From positions 1 to 37,395 of the IMG/VR virus record IMGVR_UViG_3300034123_000008: 37,395 nt of DNA; one strand, 5' to 3'. Both the position numbers and the translations under genes were made by a program. Shown here one piece after another: positions 411 to 32,149 of this stretch. The notes beneath the pieces were generated by a model, which did not search any database, was not told where the DNA came from, and saw only the letters and a list, made by a program, of their open reading frames with translations. Numbering within the stretch: position 1 is the stretch's first letter; each line of letters starts with the position of its first letter. Origin of the DNA: a virus. Lineage: Duplodnaviria > Caudoviricetes.

Positions 411-1298
411 TTAAGTTTGTGTATTAATCTCGCATATAGCCGCTGGTCTTTTTATGATGGGAACTACAGCTTCCCAAACTTTGCCTTGATAATTCATTGA
501 TGGCAACTGAGTGAGGTATGTGCTTACATCTGCACCGACGCCTAATTCGAAGTTTCCAGGTGAAGTGTCAATTAGCAAAGTGTTGGTTGATGTACCAGCC
601 GCTGCCAAAAGATTGTTTGATACAACAATGCTGCCGGGTCCACCTAAGAGGTCTTCGAGAACTTGGAATGCAAAAGTGTCTGTAGTGCCAACGAGAACAC
701 GAAGTTGACTGTAGAACGTGCTGTTGATAATCATTTTGTAGGGTCCATAGAAGCCGTCTGTTTCAAGTTCCGCGATAGCAGCATTTGTATCTGTTATGTA
801 GTCGCTGCTCCAGTCGCCGCCGTTAACTGTGTTTCTGCCAGTTGCATTTGCGAGACCTTCAATTCCAAGTGCTGGCCATCCTGTGTATTCGCCTGTCAAT
901 ATGAGTTTGTCTTCTTCCTCTGCAATCTGTCGAGCTGCGTTAACTGCGTTAGCTGTGTTTAAGTCTTCGCCACCGTTGCGTCGTGCAAGAACATCTCGCC
1001 AATGAAGTTTATAGTCCTTCGAGATAATTGGCACTTTAACTTCGTGACCGCTGAGATCTACGAAATCCATTGATTCTTCTTCACCAGTCATGCTGATGAG
1101 GGCTTGTCCCATGTCGTTTTCAGTGTAGAAAGTTGTTTTTGTTATGCCTGCGTTGCCTAGTGATCGTGTAGGCATTAAGGTTCTGCCAACAAGCATTGGT
1201 CGAATGGTCTTTGTTATTTGGGTTTCAATTAGGTTTACTTCGTAGTCTGTTAATGTTCCTGTTGCGTTTCCGATTCTATTCATAGAGTTCATAGTCAT
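411..1298 (-). CDS. Major capsid protein, HK97 fold, Family 1 encapsulin/Linocin_M18-like
   Basis: 295 aa; LVGRTLMP, PIISKDYKLHWRDV, DLNTANAVNAARQIAEEEDKLILTG, GFYGPYKMI, PGNFELGVGAD, PIIKRPAAICEI; last gene of the head operon. Confidence 0.9.
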   Translation of the reverse strand: MTMNSMNRIGNATGTLTDYEVNLIETQITKTIRPMLVGRTLMPTRSLGNAGITKTTFYTENDMGQALISMTGEEESMDFVDLSGHEVKVPIISKDYKLHWRDVLARRNGGEDLNTANAVNAARQIAEEEDKLILTGEYTGWPALGIEGLANATGRNTVNGGDWSSDYITDTNAAIAELETDGFYGPYKMIINSTFYSQLRVLVGTTDTFAFQVLEDLLGGPGSIVVSNNLLAAAGTSTNTLLIDTSPGNFELGVGADVSTYLTQLPSMNYQGKVWEAVVPIIKRPAAICEINTQT

Positions 1299-5493: not shown

Positions 5494-5904
5494 TTATTCT
5501 TCCTTTGTTGTTGGTCCTTTTGTCCAATCTGTTCCTATGTTACTCCATAAATCTAAGTTTGATTCAGGTCCCCACTTCTCATCTTCACGTATAAGTAAGC
5601 AGCCGCATGTTCCTTCTTTTCCCCATAAGGTTTTGTGGACGTTTGCATATATGTCGTCGCCGACCCATTCATGATCTGGAAATACTGTTCTAAGTTGGCT
5701 GCCTGTGAAGGTTGAACCGTCAAACATTTCGCAGTATATGCATGATGGTCCTTCTGGTTGATGGTGGGTGTCTAAGTAGAATGTCCATAATGCGTTTACG
5801 CTATACGGGCTTGTATCGCGTAGGTGTTCTGGGATGCGTTGTTTAGCTGCTAACTGCGTTAGGTTTACGAGTGTTAGTAATTTCTGTGATAATATAGCTT
5901 GCAT
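5494..5904 (-). CDS. Short minor head protein, Mu gpF/SPP1 gp7 C-terminal-domain-like
   Basis: CIYCEMFDG...VH...CGCLL motif; directly after portal; start uncertain. Confidence 0.6.
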   Translation of the reverse strand: MQAILSQKLLTLVNLTQLAAKQRIPEHLRDTSPYSVNALWTFYLDTHHQPEGPSCIYCEMFDGSTFTGSQLRTVFPDHEWVGDDIYANVHKTLWGKEGTCGCLLIREDEKWGPESNLDLWSNIGTDWTKGPTTKEE

Positions 5905-7354
5905 CTCCTTTCGCTATTTGTTCCTGTATCTTTTTATCTTCTAAAGGATTGTTGGGCTTAGCGTCAAATGGCGCTTTCCCCTCTTGACCCAATGGCTGCT
6001 TCTTAAGTGGATCAGGATTCAACGGTAGCCCCGTAAGTGGATTCACACCTATTTCAGGTTGTGGACCGTTAGATTTGCCTTTTAAATCGTCCCCGCCCTC
6101 TTCCTTACTTAAATCTGTGCAGTCAGGATCAATCATCTTTCTAATTTCGTTTCGTTTAAAGAACGACCAAAGATAATCGACTTCTTGCGCACGAACTAAA
6201 GCCATCTGCTGCTTAGTCTGTTCATCTAGTTCGAATCCGCCTTTCCAGTTAAAAGTGAAGTCTGTTTCTTGCCCTATCAAGGCTTCTATGATTAAGCGTA
6301 TGCCGTCTTCGTAGCTGGATTGTTCGCCGCTTATCATACTCCAAAGGTTAGAGGTGTCTGTTTGTGAACCTGTTAATGCTCCTGCTTGCACACCCCTAAG
6401 AATAGCTAAGGGTATTCCTGTACCACACGAAATATGCTCCATCGGTGGCAAATAATAATTCATTGGATCAAGAGCATGGCCTTGTAAGCCTTTGAAATCT
6501 AACAGTTGATCTTCATTATGAGCAAAATAAGTACGTGCTGACAGATCCTTAAATGAACCTGACGCAATGAAGTCGTCTATGTCTTTTTTCTCTGCACCTG
6601 TAAATGTAATGTCGGGAAACCCTGAGCCGTATCTATACATTGTTTGGCCCATACCCCACCGAATATTTCTAAGGGTTGTTAAGTCGTCCCAGATAGCATC
6701 TAAAACAGATTTACCCATCCAATCATGATCTATAAGGCGCGTAGCGAAGTGAACCACTCGGCTATAATGTACTTTCATTGAAGCTAATTGCCCTGGGCGA
6801 CTAATCACGTAGTATAAGGGTAAACCGTAGCGTTCACTGTTTGGATCTTCATCTAATTGAGGCACGGATATTTGTGTGGGTCCATACGCTTTAATCTCTA
6901 CAAGTTCCCCGCTTGTTTTAGGTTCTGCAAGCGATTCTGCTGAATCATTAAAGCCAAGTACAATTATTGCCCAACCATACCCACGTTCAAAGATTGCCAT
7001 ACGGGTTAATTCTTGTTTAGCATTAATCTTATCTAGTTGCTTCTGTATGCGTTTATCGAATGCAACGTTGTCTTTTGAGGCGGGTTGTGCGGCTGTTTCT
7101 GTTGGTGCCGCTGAAGGAACACGATAGTTGCTGCCTTCAAGGGTGAACCAGTTGTCAAAGATTGCTTTAGCTATTGAGAATACAGTTCGAAACGCCACGG
7201 GTTCGCGTAGTATGGCAAAGGTGCGTAATGTGTCGTTGATGTCTTCACCATATTCGCCACCGCCTCCTGTTCCACCGCGGGGTATAGTGATGCCTGTACC
7301 TGCTTGAGTAGTAGAAGCTAAACCTACATGCTTAACTGAAACACGCTGAGTCAT
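5843..7354 (-). CDS. Portal protein (DUF1073-like)
   Basis: 503 aa; ERGYGWAII, RYGLPLYY, KVHYSRVVHF, GKSVL, GIPLAILRG; downstream of TerL. Confidence 0.9.
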   Translation of the reverse strand: MTQRVSVKHVGLASTTQAGTGITIPRGGTGGGGEYGEDINDTLRTFAILREPVAFRTVFSIAKAIFDNWFTLEGSNYRVPSAAPTETAAQPASKDNVAFDKRIQKQLDKINAKQELTRMAIFERGYGWAIIVLGFNDSAESLAEPKTSGELVEIKAYGPTQISVPQLDEDPNSERYGLPLYYVISRPGQLASMKVHYSRVVHFATRLIDHDWMGKSVLDAIWDDLTTLRNIRWGMGQTMYRYGSGFPDITFTGAEKKDIDDFIASGSFKDLSARTYFAHNEDQLLDFKGLQGHALDPMNYYLPPMEHISCGTGIPLAILRGVQAGALTGSQTDTSNLWSMISGEQSSYEDGIRLIIEALIGQETDFTFNWKGGFELDEQTKQQMALVRAQEVDYLWSFFKRNEIRKMIDPDCTDLSKEEGGDDLKGKSNGPQPEIGVNPLTGLPLNPDPLKKQPLGQEGKAPFDAKPNNPLEDKKIQEQIAKGDASYIITEITNTRKPNAVSS

Positions 7355-10470: not shown

Positions 10471-10614
10471 TCAGCCTTCACAATTCATATCCTCATGTAC
10501 TGTAGAGGGGTGTGTTCGTTCTTCATGTATTCCACGTAACCAACCGATTGCATACGGAACACAATATATGCTTATCACAACCACTGCTAAGATTGATAGT
10601 TGTGTTAAATCCAT
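10471..10614 (-). CDS. Small single-pass membrane protein (47 aa)
   Basis: AAGGAG RBS before MDLTQLSILAVVVISIYCVPYAIGW; the longer ORF call is probably over-extended. Confidence 0.6.
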   Translation of the reverse strand: MDLTQLSILAVVVISIYCVPYAIGWLRGIHEERTHPSTVHEDMNCEG

Positions 10615-11140: not shown

Positions 11141-11557
11141 CTATGGATGTAAAGTATTCGCGTGATATATCCAGTTGCCTACAGGTGGAACAAAACTAAT
11201 AGATGCTGTGCCTGAGGCGTCTGTTGGTGCTGATCCCATTAAGTTGCCGTTTTGATCATAAAAATCCACGTTGACTCCTGCTAATGCATCGCTAAGTGTT
11301 GTCGTTAAAGTCCATGTTGCTCCCCATGTTACTGTTGAAGGCGAAATAGTTACTTGTGAAAGAGTAGCTTGTGGTACAGGTGTAGGTGTTGGAGTGGCTG
11401 GTGGAGGTGTAGGATTTACGGTTCCAGCTGTGCTATCAGGGCTTCTTATGCCATAAACTGCAACAGCGTAACCAATCAAAGAAAAAGCAGCGATAGCTAC
11501 GCATACTGCGATTAAAGCGTATTTTTGGGTTGAAGATAATTTACTTAAGACATTCAT
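11141..11557 (-). CDS. Membrane-anchored Ig-like domain protein
   Basis: GAGGTGA RBS at 11566-72; N-terminal TM, PT linker, Big-like domain (GVNVDFYD, TDASGTAS). Confidence 0.75.
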   Translation of the reverse strand: MNVLSKLSSTQKYALIAVCVAIAAFSLIGYAVAVYGIRSPDSTAGTVNPTPPPATPTPTPVPQATLSQVTISPSTVTWGATWTLTTTLSDALAGVNVDFYDQNGNLMGSAPTDASGTASISFVPPVGNWIYHANTLHP

Positions 11558-11573
11558 ATTGTTTTTCACCTCT

Positions 11574-12155
11574 CTAAACAACTACTTTCTTTTCTATTGT
11601 AATTATTTGTTTTAATCCATCTGAGCTGGTGAATACTTTGTTTGATGGAATAACCCCGGATATTTGTGATTCAATAGTTTGTGATTGTTTAAACAACTCG
11701 GTTTTTTGTTGTTCAACAGTTTGCTGCATTGACGCATATTTATTTTGTATCTCAGAATACTGTGTGGATAACTGTTCTTTTTCTTTGCTTACTGTGGTGA
11801 ATGCTTCATCTTTCAATTTTGTTGCTGAAGTTAATTCTTCTGTTTGCCCGGTTAATGTTCCTATGGTTTCATCTTTGCCTTTAATCTCTTTTGTTGCCCA
11901 ACTTGATAATGCAGCTTTCTGCTTCTTAATTTGATTATAAGCATAACCAAACGCTGCAGTGCCTGCTAACCCTACACCTGTGGTTCCTACAAGGCCATAA
12001 ACTGTAGAAAACGTAGTTGTGATTTGCGTATGTAAATACGCGTATGCCATGTTGCCATAATACGCGAAGGGATCAATATTTAGATACCAAAGTATAGGAA
12101 ATGCAATCAAAGCTACAACAACAACTACAATTATGAGTTTAATTGCACCATTCAT
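11574..12155 (-). CDS. Membrane protein with C-terminal coiled coil
   Basis: 193 aa, two hydrophobic segments followed by a long heptad region. Confidence 0.75.
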   Translation of the reverse strand: MNGAIKLIIVVVVVALIAFPILWYLNIDPFAYYGNMAYAYLHTQITTTFSTVYGLVGTTGVGLAGTAAFGYAYNQIKKQKAALSSWATKEIKGKDETIGTLTGQTEELTSATKLKDEAFTTVSKEKEQLSTQYSEIQNKYASMQQTVEQQKTELFKQSQTIESQISGVIPSNKVFTSSDGLKQIITIEKKVVV

Positions 12156-12156
12156 T

Positions 12157-12600
12157 TTATCCTGTCCCTTCTAAATTCATGAGGAAACGAGCTTCAATTG
12201 TAAATGCAGAAGCTGCTTTAATTGTATAAGGATTATGGCTGTCAAATTGTGAATCGCCAAACATCCAAGCGTTAAATCTGTATCCAACTGCAGGTATTAC
12301 TTTAAAGGTTAAGGTGTCGCCGTTGGGGCAATTTAATGATTTAGGCAAGTCTGCAGCAGTTAATGTTAATGTTGAGCCTCGGTTCTGGTTGGTTACGGTT
12401 ATTGATTGAACTCCTATCGCTGAATTTACGGTGTAAGTTATTATTGGGGGTGGACCTGGCGTTTCTGCAACGGTTGGTGCAGGTGTTGGAGTGGCATTCA
12501 ATTTTTTAGCAGCATTAGATGCATTACTTGCTGCGGCAGCTATACCGCCGACTAACAATACACCAACGATTATAAGTATAAAATAGAAACGGGGTTTCAT
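12157..12600 (-). CDS. Membrane-anchored InlB B-repeat-like protein
   Basis: MKPRFYFILIIVGV signal/TM, PT linker, PAVGYRFNAW...NPYTI...IEARF; ATGA-coupled. Confidence 0.75.
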   Translation of the reverse strand: MKPRFYFILIIVGVLLVGGIAAAASNASNAAKKLNATPTPAPTVAETPGPPPIITYTVNSAIGVQSITVTNQNRGSTLTLTAADLPKSLNCPNGDTLTFKVIPAVGYRFNAWMFGDSQFDSHNPYTIKAASAFTIEARFLMNLEGTG

Positions 12601-13001
12601 TGCTGTAGCTCCCATTCAGGTGATGGAGGAGAATCAAGCGGTTTCTTAAGTTCAGGCATAGGCGGCATCTTAAAATCATATTTGCCTTCACGTGCATTCT
12701 GCCTAAACGCTTCAAGATCCAATACGTACCGAGCGCGATCTGCTTCCTTTGACAAGTCAAATTGATGTATTACTGTGTGGTTGACTATTCCGACGCGGCC
12801 GTATTCGTCGGGTTCAGATTTTGTTATAACTGTTTTAGCTGTGTAGCAGTTTGCTGCGCCTACACGTTTGAAGGTGCCTATTTGCTGTGCATCCCACATT
12901 GGCGCAAGTTTTTCAGGGCTTAAGATTTCAAGCAGTAGAGGCGATTCATAGGTGACTTCGACGCCGCCTATCATGCCTTTAACAAATTGAGCTGAACGCA
13001 T
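12597..13001 (-). CDS. GAP1-N2-like GTPase-associated protein
   Basis: DEYGRVGIVNHTVI resembles the D-x-x-GR-x-G-x(3)-H signature; adjacent to the GTPase. Confidence 0.55.
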   Translation of the reverse strand: MRSAQFVKGMIGGVEVTYESPLLLEILSPEKLAPMWDAQQIGTFKRVGAANCYTAKTVITKSEPDEYGRVGIVNHTVIHQFDLSKEADRARYVLDLEAFRQNAREGKYDFKMPPMPELKKPLDSPPSPEWELQQ

Positions 13002-13007
13002 ATTGCA

Positions 13008-14099
13008 TCAACTCGCTAAAGCCTGCAGCCAATCTAATACTTTGAAGCTCCAATATTCACTATAATGGATTGCGTTTACGTTGTCTTGCCAATTAGCTGT
13101 ACGATCAAAGATGTCGCGGCGTTTAATTTTAAAGTCGTTTGGATTAGCGGGGTCCCAACATTGGGGTTTACCGTTGACTTTTTCTATTTCAATGAAACTG
13201 GGGAAATATGAGATGTTGTTTAAGCCTAAGCTTGTGATTGCTGCGTATGTGGATGGGTAGAAGGCTTCCATAAACTTCTCCATTGATGCAACACTTATCT
13301 TTGTATCGAGAGGGTTGAATGGTTCACCTGTAATTCTTTGTATTTGTTCAGCTACCGGGGCTAATCCATCCCAAGCAGTCACCACGACGCCCACATGATT
13401 TAAGGGTGGAAAACTGCTATTTTGCCGTTTAAACTTGCAGATGCCTTGAACCATACGTTTAAGGTTAGCGTCACTATAGATGCTCATGCCTGATACATCA
13501 GTGGGTTCTTTCTCTAATTCTATTTCTAAACCTTGTGCTCTAGTTGCTTTAATGATTAATAATATGGCGTTTGATCTGCATACCATTGTGATGGCGCGAT
13601 CCGCTGGAATACGTGCTGCATCTTCTAAGGTGCGTGCTTGATTAACTTTCTCTATCAAGTTAATGAGGTCTTCGCCTGCAAGATCCGCCATGACAGAGTG
13701 AACAGTTTTTTTACTTAAACAGAAGCATTTGCCGCCGGGTAAATATTTAACGTGTGCATATTGAAAAGTGGCGCATGGTTCAACACTGCTTATTCCAAGT
13801 TTACCGGTTTTAGGTGGGAAATGGCCTGCTCGCATAGCTGACTTACTGTTTTCGATGTCTCCTGTGCCTTCATCAATGTTATATGTGAAAGGGTATTCTG
13901 TGCCTCGTGATTTGGTTACTTTACGGTCTGCCGCGATAAGTGTTGCTGCAAGAAAAGCTGATTTGCCGCTACCTTTGGTGCCTATCATTGTTACGCCGCA
14001 TTCAGCCATGCCCGCATCCATTATTTGGCCAACGTTTTGGTTTCTTTGGTTGTTGCTTTCATAGCCAATTAGGTCTTTAGCTGTATCCCAAAAGGGCAT
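13008..14099 (-). CDS. TRAFAC-class GTPase (DO-GTPase2-like)
   Basis: G1 GTKGSGKS, G2 FPPKT, G3 DLAGE, G4 variant TAWD. Confidence 0.85.
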   Translation of the reverse strand: MPFWDTAKDLIGYESNNQRNQNVGQIMDAGMAECGVTMIGTKGSGKSAFLAATLIAADRKVTKSRGTEYPFTYNIDEGTGDIENSKSAMRAGHFPPKTGKLGISSVEPCATFQYAHVKYLPGGKCFCLSKKTVHSVMADLAGEDLINLIEKVNQARTLEDAARIPADRAITMVCRSNAILLIIKATRAQGLEIELEKEPTDVSGMSIYSDANLKRMVQGICKFKRQNSSFPPLNHVGVVVTAWDGLAPVAEQIQRITGEPFNPLDTKISVASMEKFMEAFYPSTYAAITSLGLNNISYFPSFIEIEKVNGKPQCWDPANPNDFKIKRRDIFDRTANWQDNVNAIHYSEYWSFKVLDWLQALAS

Positions 14100-14434
14100 T
14101 AGGTAACCACCGTTTGATCAGCTGATCCGGTTTGGCTTAAGGTTTGTCCTTGTGGCATATAGGTGTTTTGTTGTGTGTTTACTTTGGTTCCTGTGATATA
14201 GGTTTTTATTACCCAGAAGATAAGCACGCCAAGACCTATGTATCCTAATGCTTGCAAGACGCCGATGATGGGTTCTACCGCGCCAAACATTGTGTAGCCA
14301 ACGAAGGCAGCGCCTATGAAGGATAAGTCAATGACTCCGAGAACATGCAGTACAGGTAACGCAATGAGTAAGCCGATTAGCAGAAAGATTATGAGCCAAC
14401 CAGATTTTGATAGTCGACTTTTAAAAGTAGGCAT
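14099..14434 (-). CDS. Multi-pass membrane protein
   Basis: 111 aa, about 3 TM segments, GAGGTGA RBS at 14445-51, stop/start overlap with the GTPase. Confidence 0.8.
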   Translation of the reverse strand: MPTFKSRLSKSGWLIIFLLIGLLIALPVLHVLGVIDLSFIGAAFVGYTMFGAVEPIIGVLQALGYIGLGVLIFWVIKTYITGTKVNTQQNTYMPQGQTLSQTGSADQTVVT

Positions 14435-14848: not shown

Positions 14849-15121
14849 CTACTTTAAACCAAATTCAAAAACCCATGAATCAGGAAGCACTAACCCGTCA
14901 GGATAATTAACGGGGTCAATAGAAGCAATATGTTTTAAATCTAACACTTTCTCTGTTAATGGGTAATCTTCTGTTTGCTGCGCGATTTTACTGTAAGTTT
15001 TAAGGAAGTCTATTGTGGCTTGATTTTTTTCTTCAAGAACTTGTTTGCGTTCATATTCAACTTTACGCATTAAGTCTCTTATTTTTCTTGATTTAGCTTT
15101 ACCCATCTTTATCGCTTCCAC
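14849..15121 (-). CDS. Hypothetical protein
   Basis: 90 aa ORF; probable start at MGKAKSRK. Confidence 0.6.
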   Translation of the reverse strand: MEAIKMGKAKSRKIRDLMRKVEYERKQVLEEKNQATIDFLKTYSKIAQQTEDYPLTEKVLDLKHIASIDPVNYPDGLVLPDSWVFEFGLK

Positions 15122-15592: not shown

Positions 15593-16120
15593 CTATGTTC
15601 TTTTAATTCGAGGTCTGCCAGGTATCGGTACAAGGCGACCATTGTTCTTTAATTTTGATAATTTTGTTACTTGTTGACCAAAAAAGGTTAATGTTTCTTT
15701 ACTCCATTGACGCGGTTCTGTTTTCTTCATTTCTATGAAATAGTCAACGGTTTCTTTGATTATCAATAACTGAGCTGTTTTAATGTGTGAATAGGGCAAA
15801 ATGTCAGCCACTACCCGAGATATATCAGTAAAATTATCGATCCTTAATTCACTTGTATGTGACCAATGCTGTTTTCTGCAAGGTGAATCATTATTGCGGG
15901 TATGGATGTTTCCAGCATTTAATGTTTGATGTAAATAATTGATAATTTCTAAATCAGTGTTGGTAACTATCAAATTTACGGTTGTATAATGAGGGTAAAC
16001 TATGTATCCTTTCTTTTTGGTTAGTTCTGTTCTTGCATGCCAACCTAAGTAAACACATCCTTCTCCATCAAAGAACCCTGCAATATACGCTTTTGTTATT
16101 TCATCCATCTTATTCACCAT
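15593..16120 (-). CDS. LAGLIDADG homing endonuclease family protein
   Basis: AYIAGFFDGEG, NTDLEII, ILPYSHIK motifs. Confidence 0.9.
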   Translation of the reverse strand: MVNKMDEITKAYIAGFFDGEGCVYLGWHARTELTKKKGYIVYPHYTTVNLIVTNTDLEIINYLHQTLNAGNIHTRNNDSPCRKQHWSHTSELRIDNFTDISRVVADILPYSHIKTAQLLIIKETVDYFIEMKKTEPRQWSKETLTFFGQQVTKLSKLKNNGRLVPIPGRPRIKRT

Positions 16121-25627: not shown

Positions 25628-26023
25628 TTATCCTGTATTCATAGAGAAATCAGTTGCTGATAATCCCGTCATTATTAATGATGCTGCACCCATAGCCCAA
25701 CCGAAAGGAGTAGATCGCATAAACATGTTAAGACTCATATCCACCATTTCTATCATAACAATTAATTTAGAAAGTTGTTGCATACCACTATTAATATTGT
25801 CAGGCAACCCAAGACGTTGACTTATTGCCAAGTATCTTAATGCTACTCGTTCAAGTTGCCTAAATGTTCCTAAAGAGCGATTAGTTTGTGGCATGTCAGA
25901 GTTAATTTTCTGTGTTTTTGCTTCTACCCCTGAAAGTAACAGCATGAGTTCTTTCATGGTTGCCATTAATTCACGTGTTTCACCTAAACTCAAAGTTGCA
26001 CTATCTCCTTTTTTATTCATCAT
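25628..26023 (-). CDS. Very short tape-measure-like protein
   Basis: 131 aa, helical, TPFGWAMGAASL; immediately before the hub. Confidence 0.45.
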   Translation of the reverse strand: MMNKKGDSATLSLGETRELMATMKELMLLLSGVEAKTQKINSDMPQTNRSLGTFRQLERVALRYLAISQRLGLPDNINSGMQQLSKLIVMIEMVDMSLNMFMRSTPFGWAMGAASLIMTGLSATDFSMNTG

Positions 26024-30385: not shown

Positions 30386-32149
30386 TCAAGCTAAATTATC
30401 AATGATTTCTTCTACGTCGCCGAAATCTGTGTTTTCAAATTCACCGAGTATATCGTCGAATAATGTTTGCCAATTAGCATCTCCCGTTGACGGTGTAGGT
30501 GTTGTTACGCGGTTAAATTGTGCAGTTATCGTGTGAGATTCACCAAACGCCGCTGTTATTGTGTGGGGATTATCTGTGTATGTTGTTACGCTGTCAAATA
30601 ACCAACCGACAAATATGGAACCTGCTGCAGCGATTGCTTGCACAACCTGAGAGAGAGAAGCAACTAAACCAGATGCAGGCGACACAGTTCCTTCGCCTAA
30701 CCCAGATTTCGCAGTGACCAAAGACCAAGTTGTAGGCGTAGGCGTCGGCGGAACATACACGACGTATTCAGGCTGCAAATTATAAGTTACATTCACCGAA
30801 CCCGAAATAGAAACAGTTAAACCCCCACTTAAATAAACGCCATTTAATAGCCACTTATCAAAAACGTATCCTTCATTTGGATGCGCTGTGATAGTTGCAG
30901 ATTGCCCAACAAGATATTGTTGAGTTCCTGAGGGGGTGCTGTATCCGCCGTTTGAGTTAGCTATGTTCACAGTATATTTTTGTTGTGGAGGAGGATCGAC
31001 TGGGCCTTGGGGGGTATTCACGGTTAATGCTGCTGTGTTGCTTGAGCCTGATGTTCCTGAGCCTGCATGATACTCAAATTTGCATTGATATTGACCTGAT
31101 GTTGTAGGTGTGTAGGGATCGCTTGCTGCTACGCCACTATACAAGGTTTTAGCCGCGCCTAATTGAATCCAAGAAGTCGCCGAAGCCAATTTAGTGAAGA
31201 ATGTAATTGAGCCTGTTTGCCCTGCAACGGTGCCTGTGAGTGTTACTGAGTCGCCGACAGTAATAGGATTATTAGATGTGGTTGGCGCAGGATATGCAGT
31301 GAGTGCTGTTTCTGGATTTACAAAGATTTCAGCGTCAGCAAACCACACCGCCGCAGACTCACCAAGATTCCAACTTGCGCCAAATAAAGGGTTTAAAGCA
31401 ATAATTGTTTGTGGACCATGCGACAACGCTTGCCCATTATCTTCATGCGTATAAACCGTATAGGGAATAGTGACATCGCAGATTAGTTGCGTCCAATCAG
31501 AATTATACGGCACATACACGGGGTTGCCAACACGTAAACTAATAGGCAAAGTCCAAACTTCATCTTGCGGTACCCGAGGAGTAACTTCTAAAATGTTATC
31601 GCCGCCACTACCTACCACGTCGAAGCCGAAGATGCCGCCTGCGCCTACAGATGAATTATTTGCTTTAATCCACATCGTCATAACTACATGGTCGCCGGGT
31701 TTCACTGTTACTTGATACCCATTAACTTCACGTGCCCCATTAAATGAGTTGCCGGGGCCGTCGATGCGTATAGAGGCTTTGCCGCTTGGACCTAAAACAG
31801 TGGTGTCGCGATGTGTGATTTGGGGGTAAATGTTGGGGTTGCCAAAACAGACGTCGCCGAAGATGTGGTAGTCTCCCCAGTGGCAGAGGCTTTGACTGTA
31901 GGGTATGCCGTTTGCGTCGTTTTGAAACATGGGTGCGTAGTTGGTTCCTGTGTAGGGCATTGGGGGATTTATCTCCGTTTTAGTGTTTGATGTGTTTTCT
32001 GGTGTTGGTTGGGGATGAATAATATATGAAGATGATTGCTCAGTTACAGTGATTAATGGTTGAGGCGCTTCACCTGTAAAAATTAAGCCGCCGAATAAAC
32101 TTAAGACAATTAGCAATCCTGCAGGCAACGTTTTATCAGACATACGCAC
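30386..32149 (-). CDS. Secreted/surface adhesin-like protein (CBM-like + Ig + two InlB B-repeat-like domains)
   Basis: N-terminal hydrophobic signal, VKPGDHVVMTMWIK, PNEGYVFDKW, GSIFVGW...DNPHTI, PT linkers. Confidence 0.7.
   Translation of the reverse strand: MRMSDKTLPAGLLIVLSLFGGLIFTGEAPQPLITVTEQSSSYIIHPQPTPENTSNTKTEINPPMPYTGTNYAPMFQNDANGIPYSQSLCHWGDYHIFGDVCFGNPNIYPQITHRDTTVLGPSGKASIRIDGPGNSFNGAREVNGYQVTVKPGDHVVMTMWIKANNSSVGAGGIFGFDVVGSGGDNILEVTPRVPQDEVWTLPISLRVGNPVYVPYNSDWTQLICDVTIPYTVYTHEDNGQALSHGPQTIIALNPLFGASWNLGESAAVWFADAEIFVNPETALTAYPAPTTSNNPITVGDSVTLTGTVAGQTGSITFFTKLASATSWIQLGAAKTLYSGVAASDPYTPTTSGQYQCKFEYHAGSGTSGSSNTAALTVNTPQGPVDPPPQQKYTVNIANSNGGYSTPSGTQQYLVGQSATITAHPNEGYVFDKWLLNGVYLSGGLTVSISGSVNVTYNLQPEYVVYVPPTPTPTTWSLVTAKSGLGEGTVSPASGLVASLSQVVQAIAAAGSIFVGWLFDSVTTYTDNPHTITAAFGESHTITAQFNRVTTPTPSTGDANWQTLFDDILGEFENTDFGDVEEIIDNLA

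Follow-up and report, generated by a model that had tools for sequence, protein, structure and literature searches.

A GTPase cassette ahead of the packaging genes of uncultured tailed viruses: a candidate exit module for likely archaeal hosts

What is a GTPase, accompanied by a small partner and several membrane proteins, doing directly ahead of the DNA-packaging genes of a tailed virus? The question is raised by a linear viral record of 37,395 nucleotides (IMG/VR IMGVR_UViG_3300034123_000008, Caudoviricetes; G000 in our set), hereafter the window, in which head-and-tail virus genes were recognised by family scan and in which six genes, hereafter the cassette, share a strand with the terminase, portal and capsid genes and lie upstream of them (Table 1). 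In the order in which they are read, we call them U, the GTPase gene, G, B, C and I. An earlier note, made from the letters of the window alone, had described them as a tightly coupled operon. Indeed, all six open reading frames (ORFs) lie where it had placed them on the minus strand, each touching or overlapping its neighbour and with the end of U coupled to the start of the GTPase gene, and the motifs that it quoted (GTKGSGKS, FPPKT, DLAGE, TAWD and DEYGRVGIVNH) are all found. We show that dozens of uncultured tailed viruses, likely archaeal as judged from their sequences, carry this cassette just ahead of the packaging genes, and we tentatively propose that it serves the late exit of the virus from its host.

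The cassette is conserved as a unit. Loci were collected from scans of viral and metagenomic contigs (L002-L049); the duplicates L009, L039 and L046 were left out of the counts, as was L023, in which the GTPase ORF was not recovered. As the seeds of the profiles came from this very set, in which a few loci are near-identical, the counts describe the set and do not test it. The same order of genes is seen in over 40 viral or metagenomic loci, far beyond chance. U is present in all 35 loci with at least 450 bp upstream, G in 39/40 and C in 27/29 of the loci with enough flank. An immunoglobulin-like (Ig) gene of either of two types is found in 22/29 loci, a small extra gene for a transmembrane (TM) protein in 11/29, and B in 9/29, where it is confined to the clade of the window. 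The core is thus U-GTPase-G-C, and the six-gene form belongs to the window's clade. Two minimal forms, L028:166-1909 and L042:9542-11262, have U, the GTPase gene and G before the terminase gene, without C and Ig genes. For its proposal to fall, the earlier note had asked both for a partner protein lacking the GAP1-N2 fold and for genes that do not keep company in other genomes; since this company is strongly kept, the cassette stands as a finding, under a different label from the one it was first given.

Its place is as constant as its content. The terminase gene comes next on the same strand in 28/28 loci with at least 5 kb downstream. Compared by pairwise scores, the terminases behind the cassette nonetheless fall into four groups that do not align with one another (15, 8, 4 and 1 members). 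In L006, the GTPase is 77% identical to that of the window while the large terminase subunit (TerL) shares just a 69-residue local match, and over the set the pairwise similarities of GTPases and terminases are barely correlated (Spearman 0.12). As four unrelated groups of terminases follow it, the cassette is tied to a place in the operon and not to a particular motor. The capsid proteins of carriers are 27-62% identical to that of the window, and carriers that are complete by direct terminal repeats (DTR) and have no capsid match also exist; such a spread across capsid lineages would be expected if the module were adapted to the envelope of the host.

On the upstream side we identified ORF X, a conserved basic ORF of about 80 residues with a DSRGxG motif and no family match, possibly a late-gene regulator or a packaging accessory. 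X heads the packaging genes in L072:1927-2166 and in 38 other viral loci, with or without the cassette. The gap between X and U is at most 24 bp in 10/23 loci, and in cassette-less kin X often runs straight to the terminase gene; the cassette is therefore likely read with the packaging genes, and likely expressed late.

The GTPase has 53 close homologues, and 106 among cluster representatives. In an alignment of 52 rows, K46 (G1), T98 (G2), G142 and E143 (G3), D210 and D244 (G4) are invariant, so that nucleotide binding and guanine specificity look intact. The unusual TAWD of the window is a derived TKxD motif, with aspartate in 52/52 rows and, at the second position, lysine in 28 and alanine in 20. 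The Walker B glutamate (E143), a feature of the DO-GTPase family (PMC7159879), is present in 52/52 rows, and the predicted TRAFAC GTPase fold and the G1-G4 motifs also agree with that family. The window's protein reaches 15.3 bits against the DO-GTPase1 Pfam model (cut-off 27 bits); 46 of the 67 homologues scanned match PF19975 or PF19993 at E<=0.05 and nine pass the curated cut-off. The family thus appears to grade into the DO-GTPases, the protein of the window being, as proposed before, a probable if divergent DO-GTPase-like TRAFAC enzyme. Its predicted structure (predicted template modelling score 0.80) matches YcjX best (PDB 6nz4; Z 14.9, root-mean-square deviation 5.2 over 285 aligned residues), although the two proteins share only 8% identity. 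A Rag-like Asgard GTPase comes second (Z 12.8), and matches to atlastin are no better than those to generic GTPases. YcjX is a stress protein of cellular organisms, and its gene lies next to that of the membrane protein YcjF; we know of no longin-like partner of YcjX.

The partner protein G forms a family of 42 members of 110-155 residues, with D65, R69, N74 and T76 nearly invariant in a conserved D..GR...NHT motif. It had first been taken for a GAP1-N2 domain, and this assignment has to be given up: PF20013 was found in 0/42 members, in 0/27 whole genomes and in 0/5 genomes of a smaller set, with one of 14 controls passing the cut-off. The faint signal that exists is to GAP1-N1 (PF20012) instead, with weak matches in 2/42 members (best E 0.049) and, across 27 whole records, in two places, both on the G ORF at 13-14 bits (cut-off 27). 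All 42 proteins stand alone: they have the size of the N-domain, end in a stop codon and are devoid of GAP1-M and GAP1-C. No fused or longer G was seen among 7997 scored candidates, which is weak evidence.

The model of G (predicted local distance difference test 86) has an order of strands and helices that fits a longin domain. Aligned with VIA-align, it resembles Mon1-Ccz1 (Z 6.0 and 5.8), FLCN and other longins (Z 4-6), all below the noise line, and PAS/GAF domains and beta-lactamases score like the longins; Foldseek lists TagF and a GATOR1 chain first (E about 0.02), again below the noise line. The viral fold library returned nothing at E<=0.001, the ESM Atlas no usable match for two of the partner proteins, and sequence searches of the PDB were empty or trivial. 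G is thus like TagF and the longin/roadblock regulators Mon1-Ccz1, FLCN and GATOR1 in its predicted topology but unlike them in sequence, to which it shows no similarity, and its fold scores stay below the noise line. We describe G as a predicted stand-alone longin/TagF-like domain with a faint GAP1-N1 affinity, and as a predicted regulator of the GTPase; according to published abstracts, longin domains act as GTPase-activating proteins (GAP) or guanine nucleotide exchange factors (GEF) for Rab and Rag GTPases.

Is the cassette, then, a compact viral version of the DO-GTPase/GAP1 ternary conflict systems, as had been suggested? Like those described by Kaur et al. 2020 (PMC7159879; PF19975, PF19993, PF20012 and PF20013), it pairs a TRAFAC GTPase bearing the invariant Walker B glutamate with a small alpha/beta partner encoded directly after it, and has TM components nearby and beta-sandwich proteins in the operon. 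Unlike them, it has a single GTPase and no zinc ribbons, its partner is a lone domain of N-domain size without GAP1-M/C, and it is fixed in content, found only in viruses and placed before the terminase gene. No Pfam match to a GASH or FNIII third component was obtained in the window or in six Ig proteins scanned, single Ig-like or InlB domains being present instead, and the window's cassette has no variable or enzymatic effector domains, gene content being constant across loci. With the three-domain GAP1, GASH/FNIII and the effectors looked for and not found, the cassette is not a canonical ternary conflict system. What holds of the suggestion is a co-occurring viral module of a DO-GTPase-like enzyme with membrane and surface proteins, for which egress is one plausible role; the GAP1-N2 partner, the third component and the effectors do not. 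By analogy, the cassette may work like a DO-GTPase/GAP1 switch or like a GTPase-longin pair.

The remaining genes encode membrane and surface proteins. U, first described as a three-TM protein, is a membrane protein with two strong hydrophobic segments, while the third, in the middle, is weak: 22/27 relatives score two TM segments at a strict threshold and 10/27 score three at a loose one. U and C share a layout of N-terminal TM segment, amphipathic or polar loop, second hydrophobic segment, and polar tail or coiled coil. C has 167-199 residues across its members, mostly with the second hydrophobic segment, and four members have a signal-peptide-like N-terminus, judged by eye; because this signal peptide looks cleavable, the coiled coil is predicted to be cytoplasmic. 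'Hol-like chemotaxis' PHROGs are faintly matched by 8/30 C members, and a holin PHROG by 2/11 of the small optional TM genes (E 0.001 and 0.05). The TM plus InlB-repeat and TM plus Ig proteins of the earlier note are borne out in B (InlB B-repeat PF18998, E 4e-4) and I (Ig-like PF16640, E 4e-6), both matches being below the curated cut-offs. The start of I is most likely ATG 11557, preceded by a GAGGTG ribosome-binding site, rather than TTG 11581. The commoner Ig type carries an excess of N-glycosylation sequons (88, where shuffled sequences average 35 and reach this value in 0/200 cases), which fits an outward-facing protein in an archaeon. An apparent sequon excess in the G family was set aside as an artefact of its NHT motif.

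The host is likely archaeal, to judge from the Ig sequons, the GAGGTG ribosome-binding sites, the TerL match and the families in common with Bathyarchaeia proviruses. Among GenBank phages, TerL has its best E-value with Methanobacterium phage psiM2 (49%), Gordonia phages being about equal by identity. As tabulated in PMC10848311, Bathyarchaeia proviruses have capsid, protease and InlB families in common with the viruses studied here, and one of them has the same capsid Pfam family and no cassette before its terminase gene; the cassette contigs are not among the entries examined of that table.

Within some lineages the cassette is fixed, and from others it is absent. Nine records were chosen by their capsid protein: five carry the GTPase, every record at 58% identity or more (5/5) being among them, and the four without it are fragments, 15-29% complete, one of which, G010, spans the slot and has no cassette. 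The slot also takes unrelated cargo, since ParB-like, ABC-ATPase-like and acetyltransferase-like genes (assigned by eye) occupy it in cassette-less viruses (L099:8551-10169, L103:7381-8995).

Starting from the observed gene order, conservation, intact GTPase motifs and pre-terminase position, and from the predicted GTPase fold, G fold and membrane topology, we infer the following mechanism. The hairpin protein U and the coiled-coil hairpin C would build up in the membrane, their tails pointing into the cytoplasm, and the GTPase would dock on these tails. The longin-like G, acting as GAP or GEF in the way that longin domains act on Rab and Rag GTPases, would control the timing. The nucleotide switch would then make U and C cluster into a lesion or a bud, while the outward TM-Ig and TM-InlB proteins would pin the membrane to the surface layer (S-layer), so that both layers fail together. 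The cassette would thus be a late, GTP-timed module that breaches the membrane of a likely archaeal host, a reading that we prefer without holding it to be established. We favour it because the slot heads the packaging genes whatever the terminase, because of the coupling to X and the spread across capsid lineages, because membrane genes are concentrated in the cassette (where most of the convincing ones of the complete genomes G003 and G045 sit) and because no lysis genes were recognised elsewhere. The weak TagF and longin matches of G, the sequons of the commoner Ig type and the faint holin-type PHROG matches point the same way. Indeed, as the earlier note had remarked, a scan of 51 window ORFs recognised neither holin nor lysin; 104 of the 232 ORFs listed for three DTR genomes also gave no endolysin or holin family, in a scan that took in a minority of those shorter than about 100 residues, so that small holins are possible. 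An endolysin adjacent to the cassette was found neither among the 51 window ORFs nor among these 104.

Several observations weigh against an exit role. The lysis-family matches are faint and mixed with generic ones: U has none in 27 relatives, and C members also match generic coiled-coil families (SbcC in 5/30, and tape measure proteins). The fold scores of G lie under the noise line (Z 5-6; Foldseek E about 0.02), and the nearest described relatives of the cassette are predicted defence systems. We know of no lysis system that uses a GTPase. The Ig type of the window shows no sequon excess (6 against 5.3), and neither does the InlB type. No match to the cassette was found in GenBank phages, nor any cultured member, and no cellular genome with it was found in pattern scans of GTDB, which are of limited sensitivity; the host remains inferred. 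Among 39 X-anchored loci, nine have the cassette between X and the terminase gene and 30 do not, a ratio that is not a population estimate since the query was led by cassette-less X. The GTPase was found in 0/28 searchable records of the cassette-less X loci, including 0/3 that are at least 90% complete; the same query found matches in the capsid-chosen records. The complete 23-kb genomes G035 and G040, whose capsid is 44% identical to that of the window, also do without the cassette. Finally, small TM ORFs near the terminase gene are found in 21/28 cassette-bearing and 7/28 cassette-less loci, over intervals that differ in length, and any of them could be an ordinary holin. The idea that the cassette displaces holin-like genes is unsupported by these counts.

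How would such a module compare with known exit systems? In phage lambda, the lysis genes stand ahead of the terminase genes. The cassette is like lambdoid holin/spanin cassettes in placing small membrane genes and a TM-coiled-coil gene before the terminase; it is unlike them in that no endolysin and no significant holin or spanin homology was found, and in that it contains a GTPase switch. It also recalls the pyramids of PVAP, in which an archaeal membrane is breached by a helical protein with an N-terminal TM segment. PVAP, as reviewed in PMC10791045, is a single 10-kDa protein of non-tailed viruses, helical, with one N-terminal TM segment and no signal sequence; C, longer and mostly with a second hydrophobic segment, differs from this description. 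The same review attributes the formation of vesicles in Haloferax to a small GTPase, OapA, which offers a case of GTPase-driven membrane budding in archaea; OapA is, however, a host Ras-like GTPase, and no homology to the cassette GTPase is shown here.

A smaller but appreciable probability goes to virus-borne defence or superinfection exclusion by a stripped-down DO-GTPase conflict system, in which a rival virus would be sensed by the Ig and InlB proteins, with the GTPase and G defining a threshold and the two-TM proteins serving as the pore-forming effectors. The closest described kin are indeed the DO-GTPase/GAP1 systems, for which FNIII beta-sandwiches are proposed as sensors and the two-TM SLATT domain as a pore effector (PMC7159879). 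The patchy presence in one slot (9/39 X-anchored loci) and the integrases in G003, G006 and G011 would also suit defence, as would the isolation of the window's block by a 400-bp gap upstream and a run of seven T downstream. However, the window gave no match to an enzymatic effector, GASH, FNIII or SLATT family, gene content is fixed and not hypervariable, and 5/5 records with a capsid at least 58% identical carry the cassette. U is, moreover, often coupled to X, and neither plasmids nor two GTDB pattern scans, which are of limited sensitivity, yielded a cellular copy. As for the T run, with which the operon was said to end, it exists in the window but is not conserved: a run of at least five T past the last cassette gene occurs in 5/30 loci, against 70/583 for any ORF end, and a conserved terminator was dismissed on this count. 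A scan for sigma-70 promoters and terminators stayed at chance level and does not extend to archaeal promoters.

We hold it to be unlikely that the cassette serves a non-lytic spread, by GTPase-driven budding of vesicles carrying virions or DNA or by adhesin-mediated bridges to neighbouring cells. Such a role would explain the Ig domains best, as outward Ig and InlB domains suit adhesion more than lysis, and the pairing of hairpin membrane proteins with a GTPase is reminiscent of machines that shape membranes. Among their structural genes, G006 and G011 have more TM-Ig genes and one for a 1000-residue protein that begins with a hydrophobic leader, and the vesicles of Haloferax (PMC10791045) offer a precedent. 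Against this, the atlastin matches do not stand out from those to other GTPases, and tail parts are encoded (baseplate hub phrog_196, E 7e-6), which makes an ordinary tailed infection available. For the same reason, namely the baseplate-hub and tail matches, a tailless or enveloped capsid was dropped. Quite improbable, in our view, is a role in assisting, at the membrane, the packaging of DNA or the assembly of virions: the adjacency to the terminase is constant in the 28 loci, but the cassette persists across changing lineages of terminase and capsid, as the Spearman coefficient above reflects, and complete kin of the same capsid family do without it. Some other role altogether would be better placed than packaging help and a little less likely than spread. 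Altogether, the late exit module remains the reading that we prefer.

Table 1. Features of the window (positions on the 37,395-nucleotide stretch; TM, transmembrane).
Feature	Position	Strand	Remarks
Capsid gene	411-1298	-	Family match
Portal gene	5843-7354	-	Family match
Large terminase (TerL)	9495-8191	-	Family match; portal and capsid genes next on same strand
Predicted small terminase	9829-9389	-	Assigned by position
Small single-TM ORF	10722-10471 (likely start near 10614)	-	Between cassette and terminase; possible accessory membrane gene
T7 run, possible terminator	11140-11134	-	Directly past last cassette stop; not conserved
I	11557-11141 (ORF to TTG 11581)	-	N-terminal TM, Pro/Thr linker, Ig-like ectodomain
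C, 193 residues	12155-11574	-	TM, outer loop, second hydrophobic segment, coiled coil of about 100 residues; near-core
B, 152 residues	12615-12157	-	N-terminal TM and InlB B-repeat-like ectodomain; optional
G, 134-residue partner	13001-12597	-	Predicted longin/TagF-like alpha/beta fold; predicted GTPase regulator
GTPase, 363 residues	14099-13008	-	TRAFAC, divergent DO-GTPase-like
U, 111-residue membrane hairpin	14434-14099	-	Two strong TM, amphipathic middle, polar tail; core gene
Candidate diverged copy of ORF X	14849-15106	-	E 0.49 among 194 window ORFs
Free-standing LAGLIDADG-type endonuclease gene	15593-16120	-	Upstream of cassette, in low-GC stretch

Other genes of these viruses deserve mention. 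The small single-TM ORF between the cassette and the terminase gene of the window has no family match at E<0.05. In cassette-less viruses, short ORFs with a coiled coil and a C-terminal TM segment lie beside the terminase gene (L111:8365-8613, L114:10656-10910 (-), L072:2102-2395, L103:7214-7378 and L099:8362-8484), one of which matches a holin PHROG (E 0.026). One cassette-less lineage has, in the slot, a 69-residue hydrophobic ORF followed by a retropepsin-like aspartyl protease gene (PF13975, E 2e-9; L086:8383-9075, also L087-L089 and L091), possibly an alternative membrane-plus-protease exit pair. G035 and G040 carry other small membrane genes, after the terminase gene and after the tail genes; the latter is a multi-TM gene of 148-152 residues (L112:10723-11169, L113:7802-8260 (-)) with no PHROG match, present in only 2/46 records and absent from the 44 others. 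The gene preceding the baseplate-hub-like gene encodes just 131 residues in the window (25628-26023, -) and 87 in L064:5715-5978 (-); if it is the tape measure, the tails of these viruses would be unusually short. TM-Ig genes, and genes for large proteins that begin with a hydrophobic leader, are also found among structural genes (L069:7076-10078 (-), L067:11905-12393, L068:693-1112 and window 30386-32149 (-)), so that decoration of the host surface by these viruses may extend beyond the cassette.

The route by which tailed viruses escape from archaea enclosed by nothing more than a membrane and an S-layer is an open question, and a 2024 review calls their egress proteins 'completely uncharacterized' (PMC10791045). 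Our literature search, which covered few subscription papers, found no published description of the cassette, and the entries examined of the Bathyarchaeia virus annotation table (PMC10848311) include no such GTPase; unpublished longin-GTPase systems are mentioned in a preprint (bioRxiv 10.64898/2026.10.19.760177). More tentatively still than for the exit role itself, we suggest that the cassette might be the machine, missing so far, by which a large group of archaeal tailed viruses leaves the cell. In it a eukaryote-style switch, made of a TRAFAC GTPase and a longin-like GAP/GEF, would fire hairpins and S-layer-pinning Ig proteins so that the envelope opens or buds, and would have been recycled from a bacterial-type defence switch. 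With four small core genes and the invariant P-loop lysine as a control, a model archaeon would allow the question to be tested directly. Should the role be defence, a minimal, virus-restricted pair of a GTPase and a longin-like protein that acts on membrane proteins would still be informative on the prokaryotic origins of membrane traffic under GTPase control. If the cassette does serve exit, it would represent a release mechanism unlike holin-endolysin lysis, pyramids or ESCRT budding.

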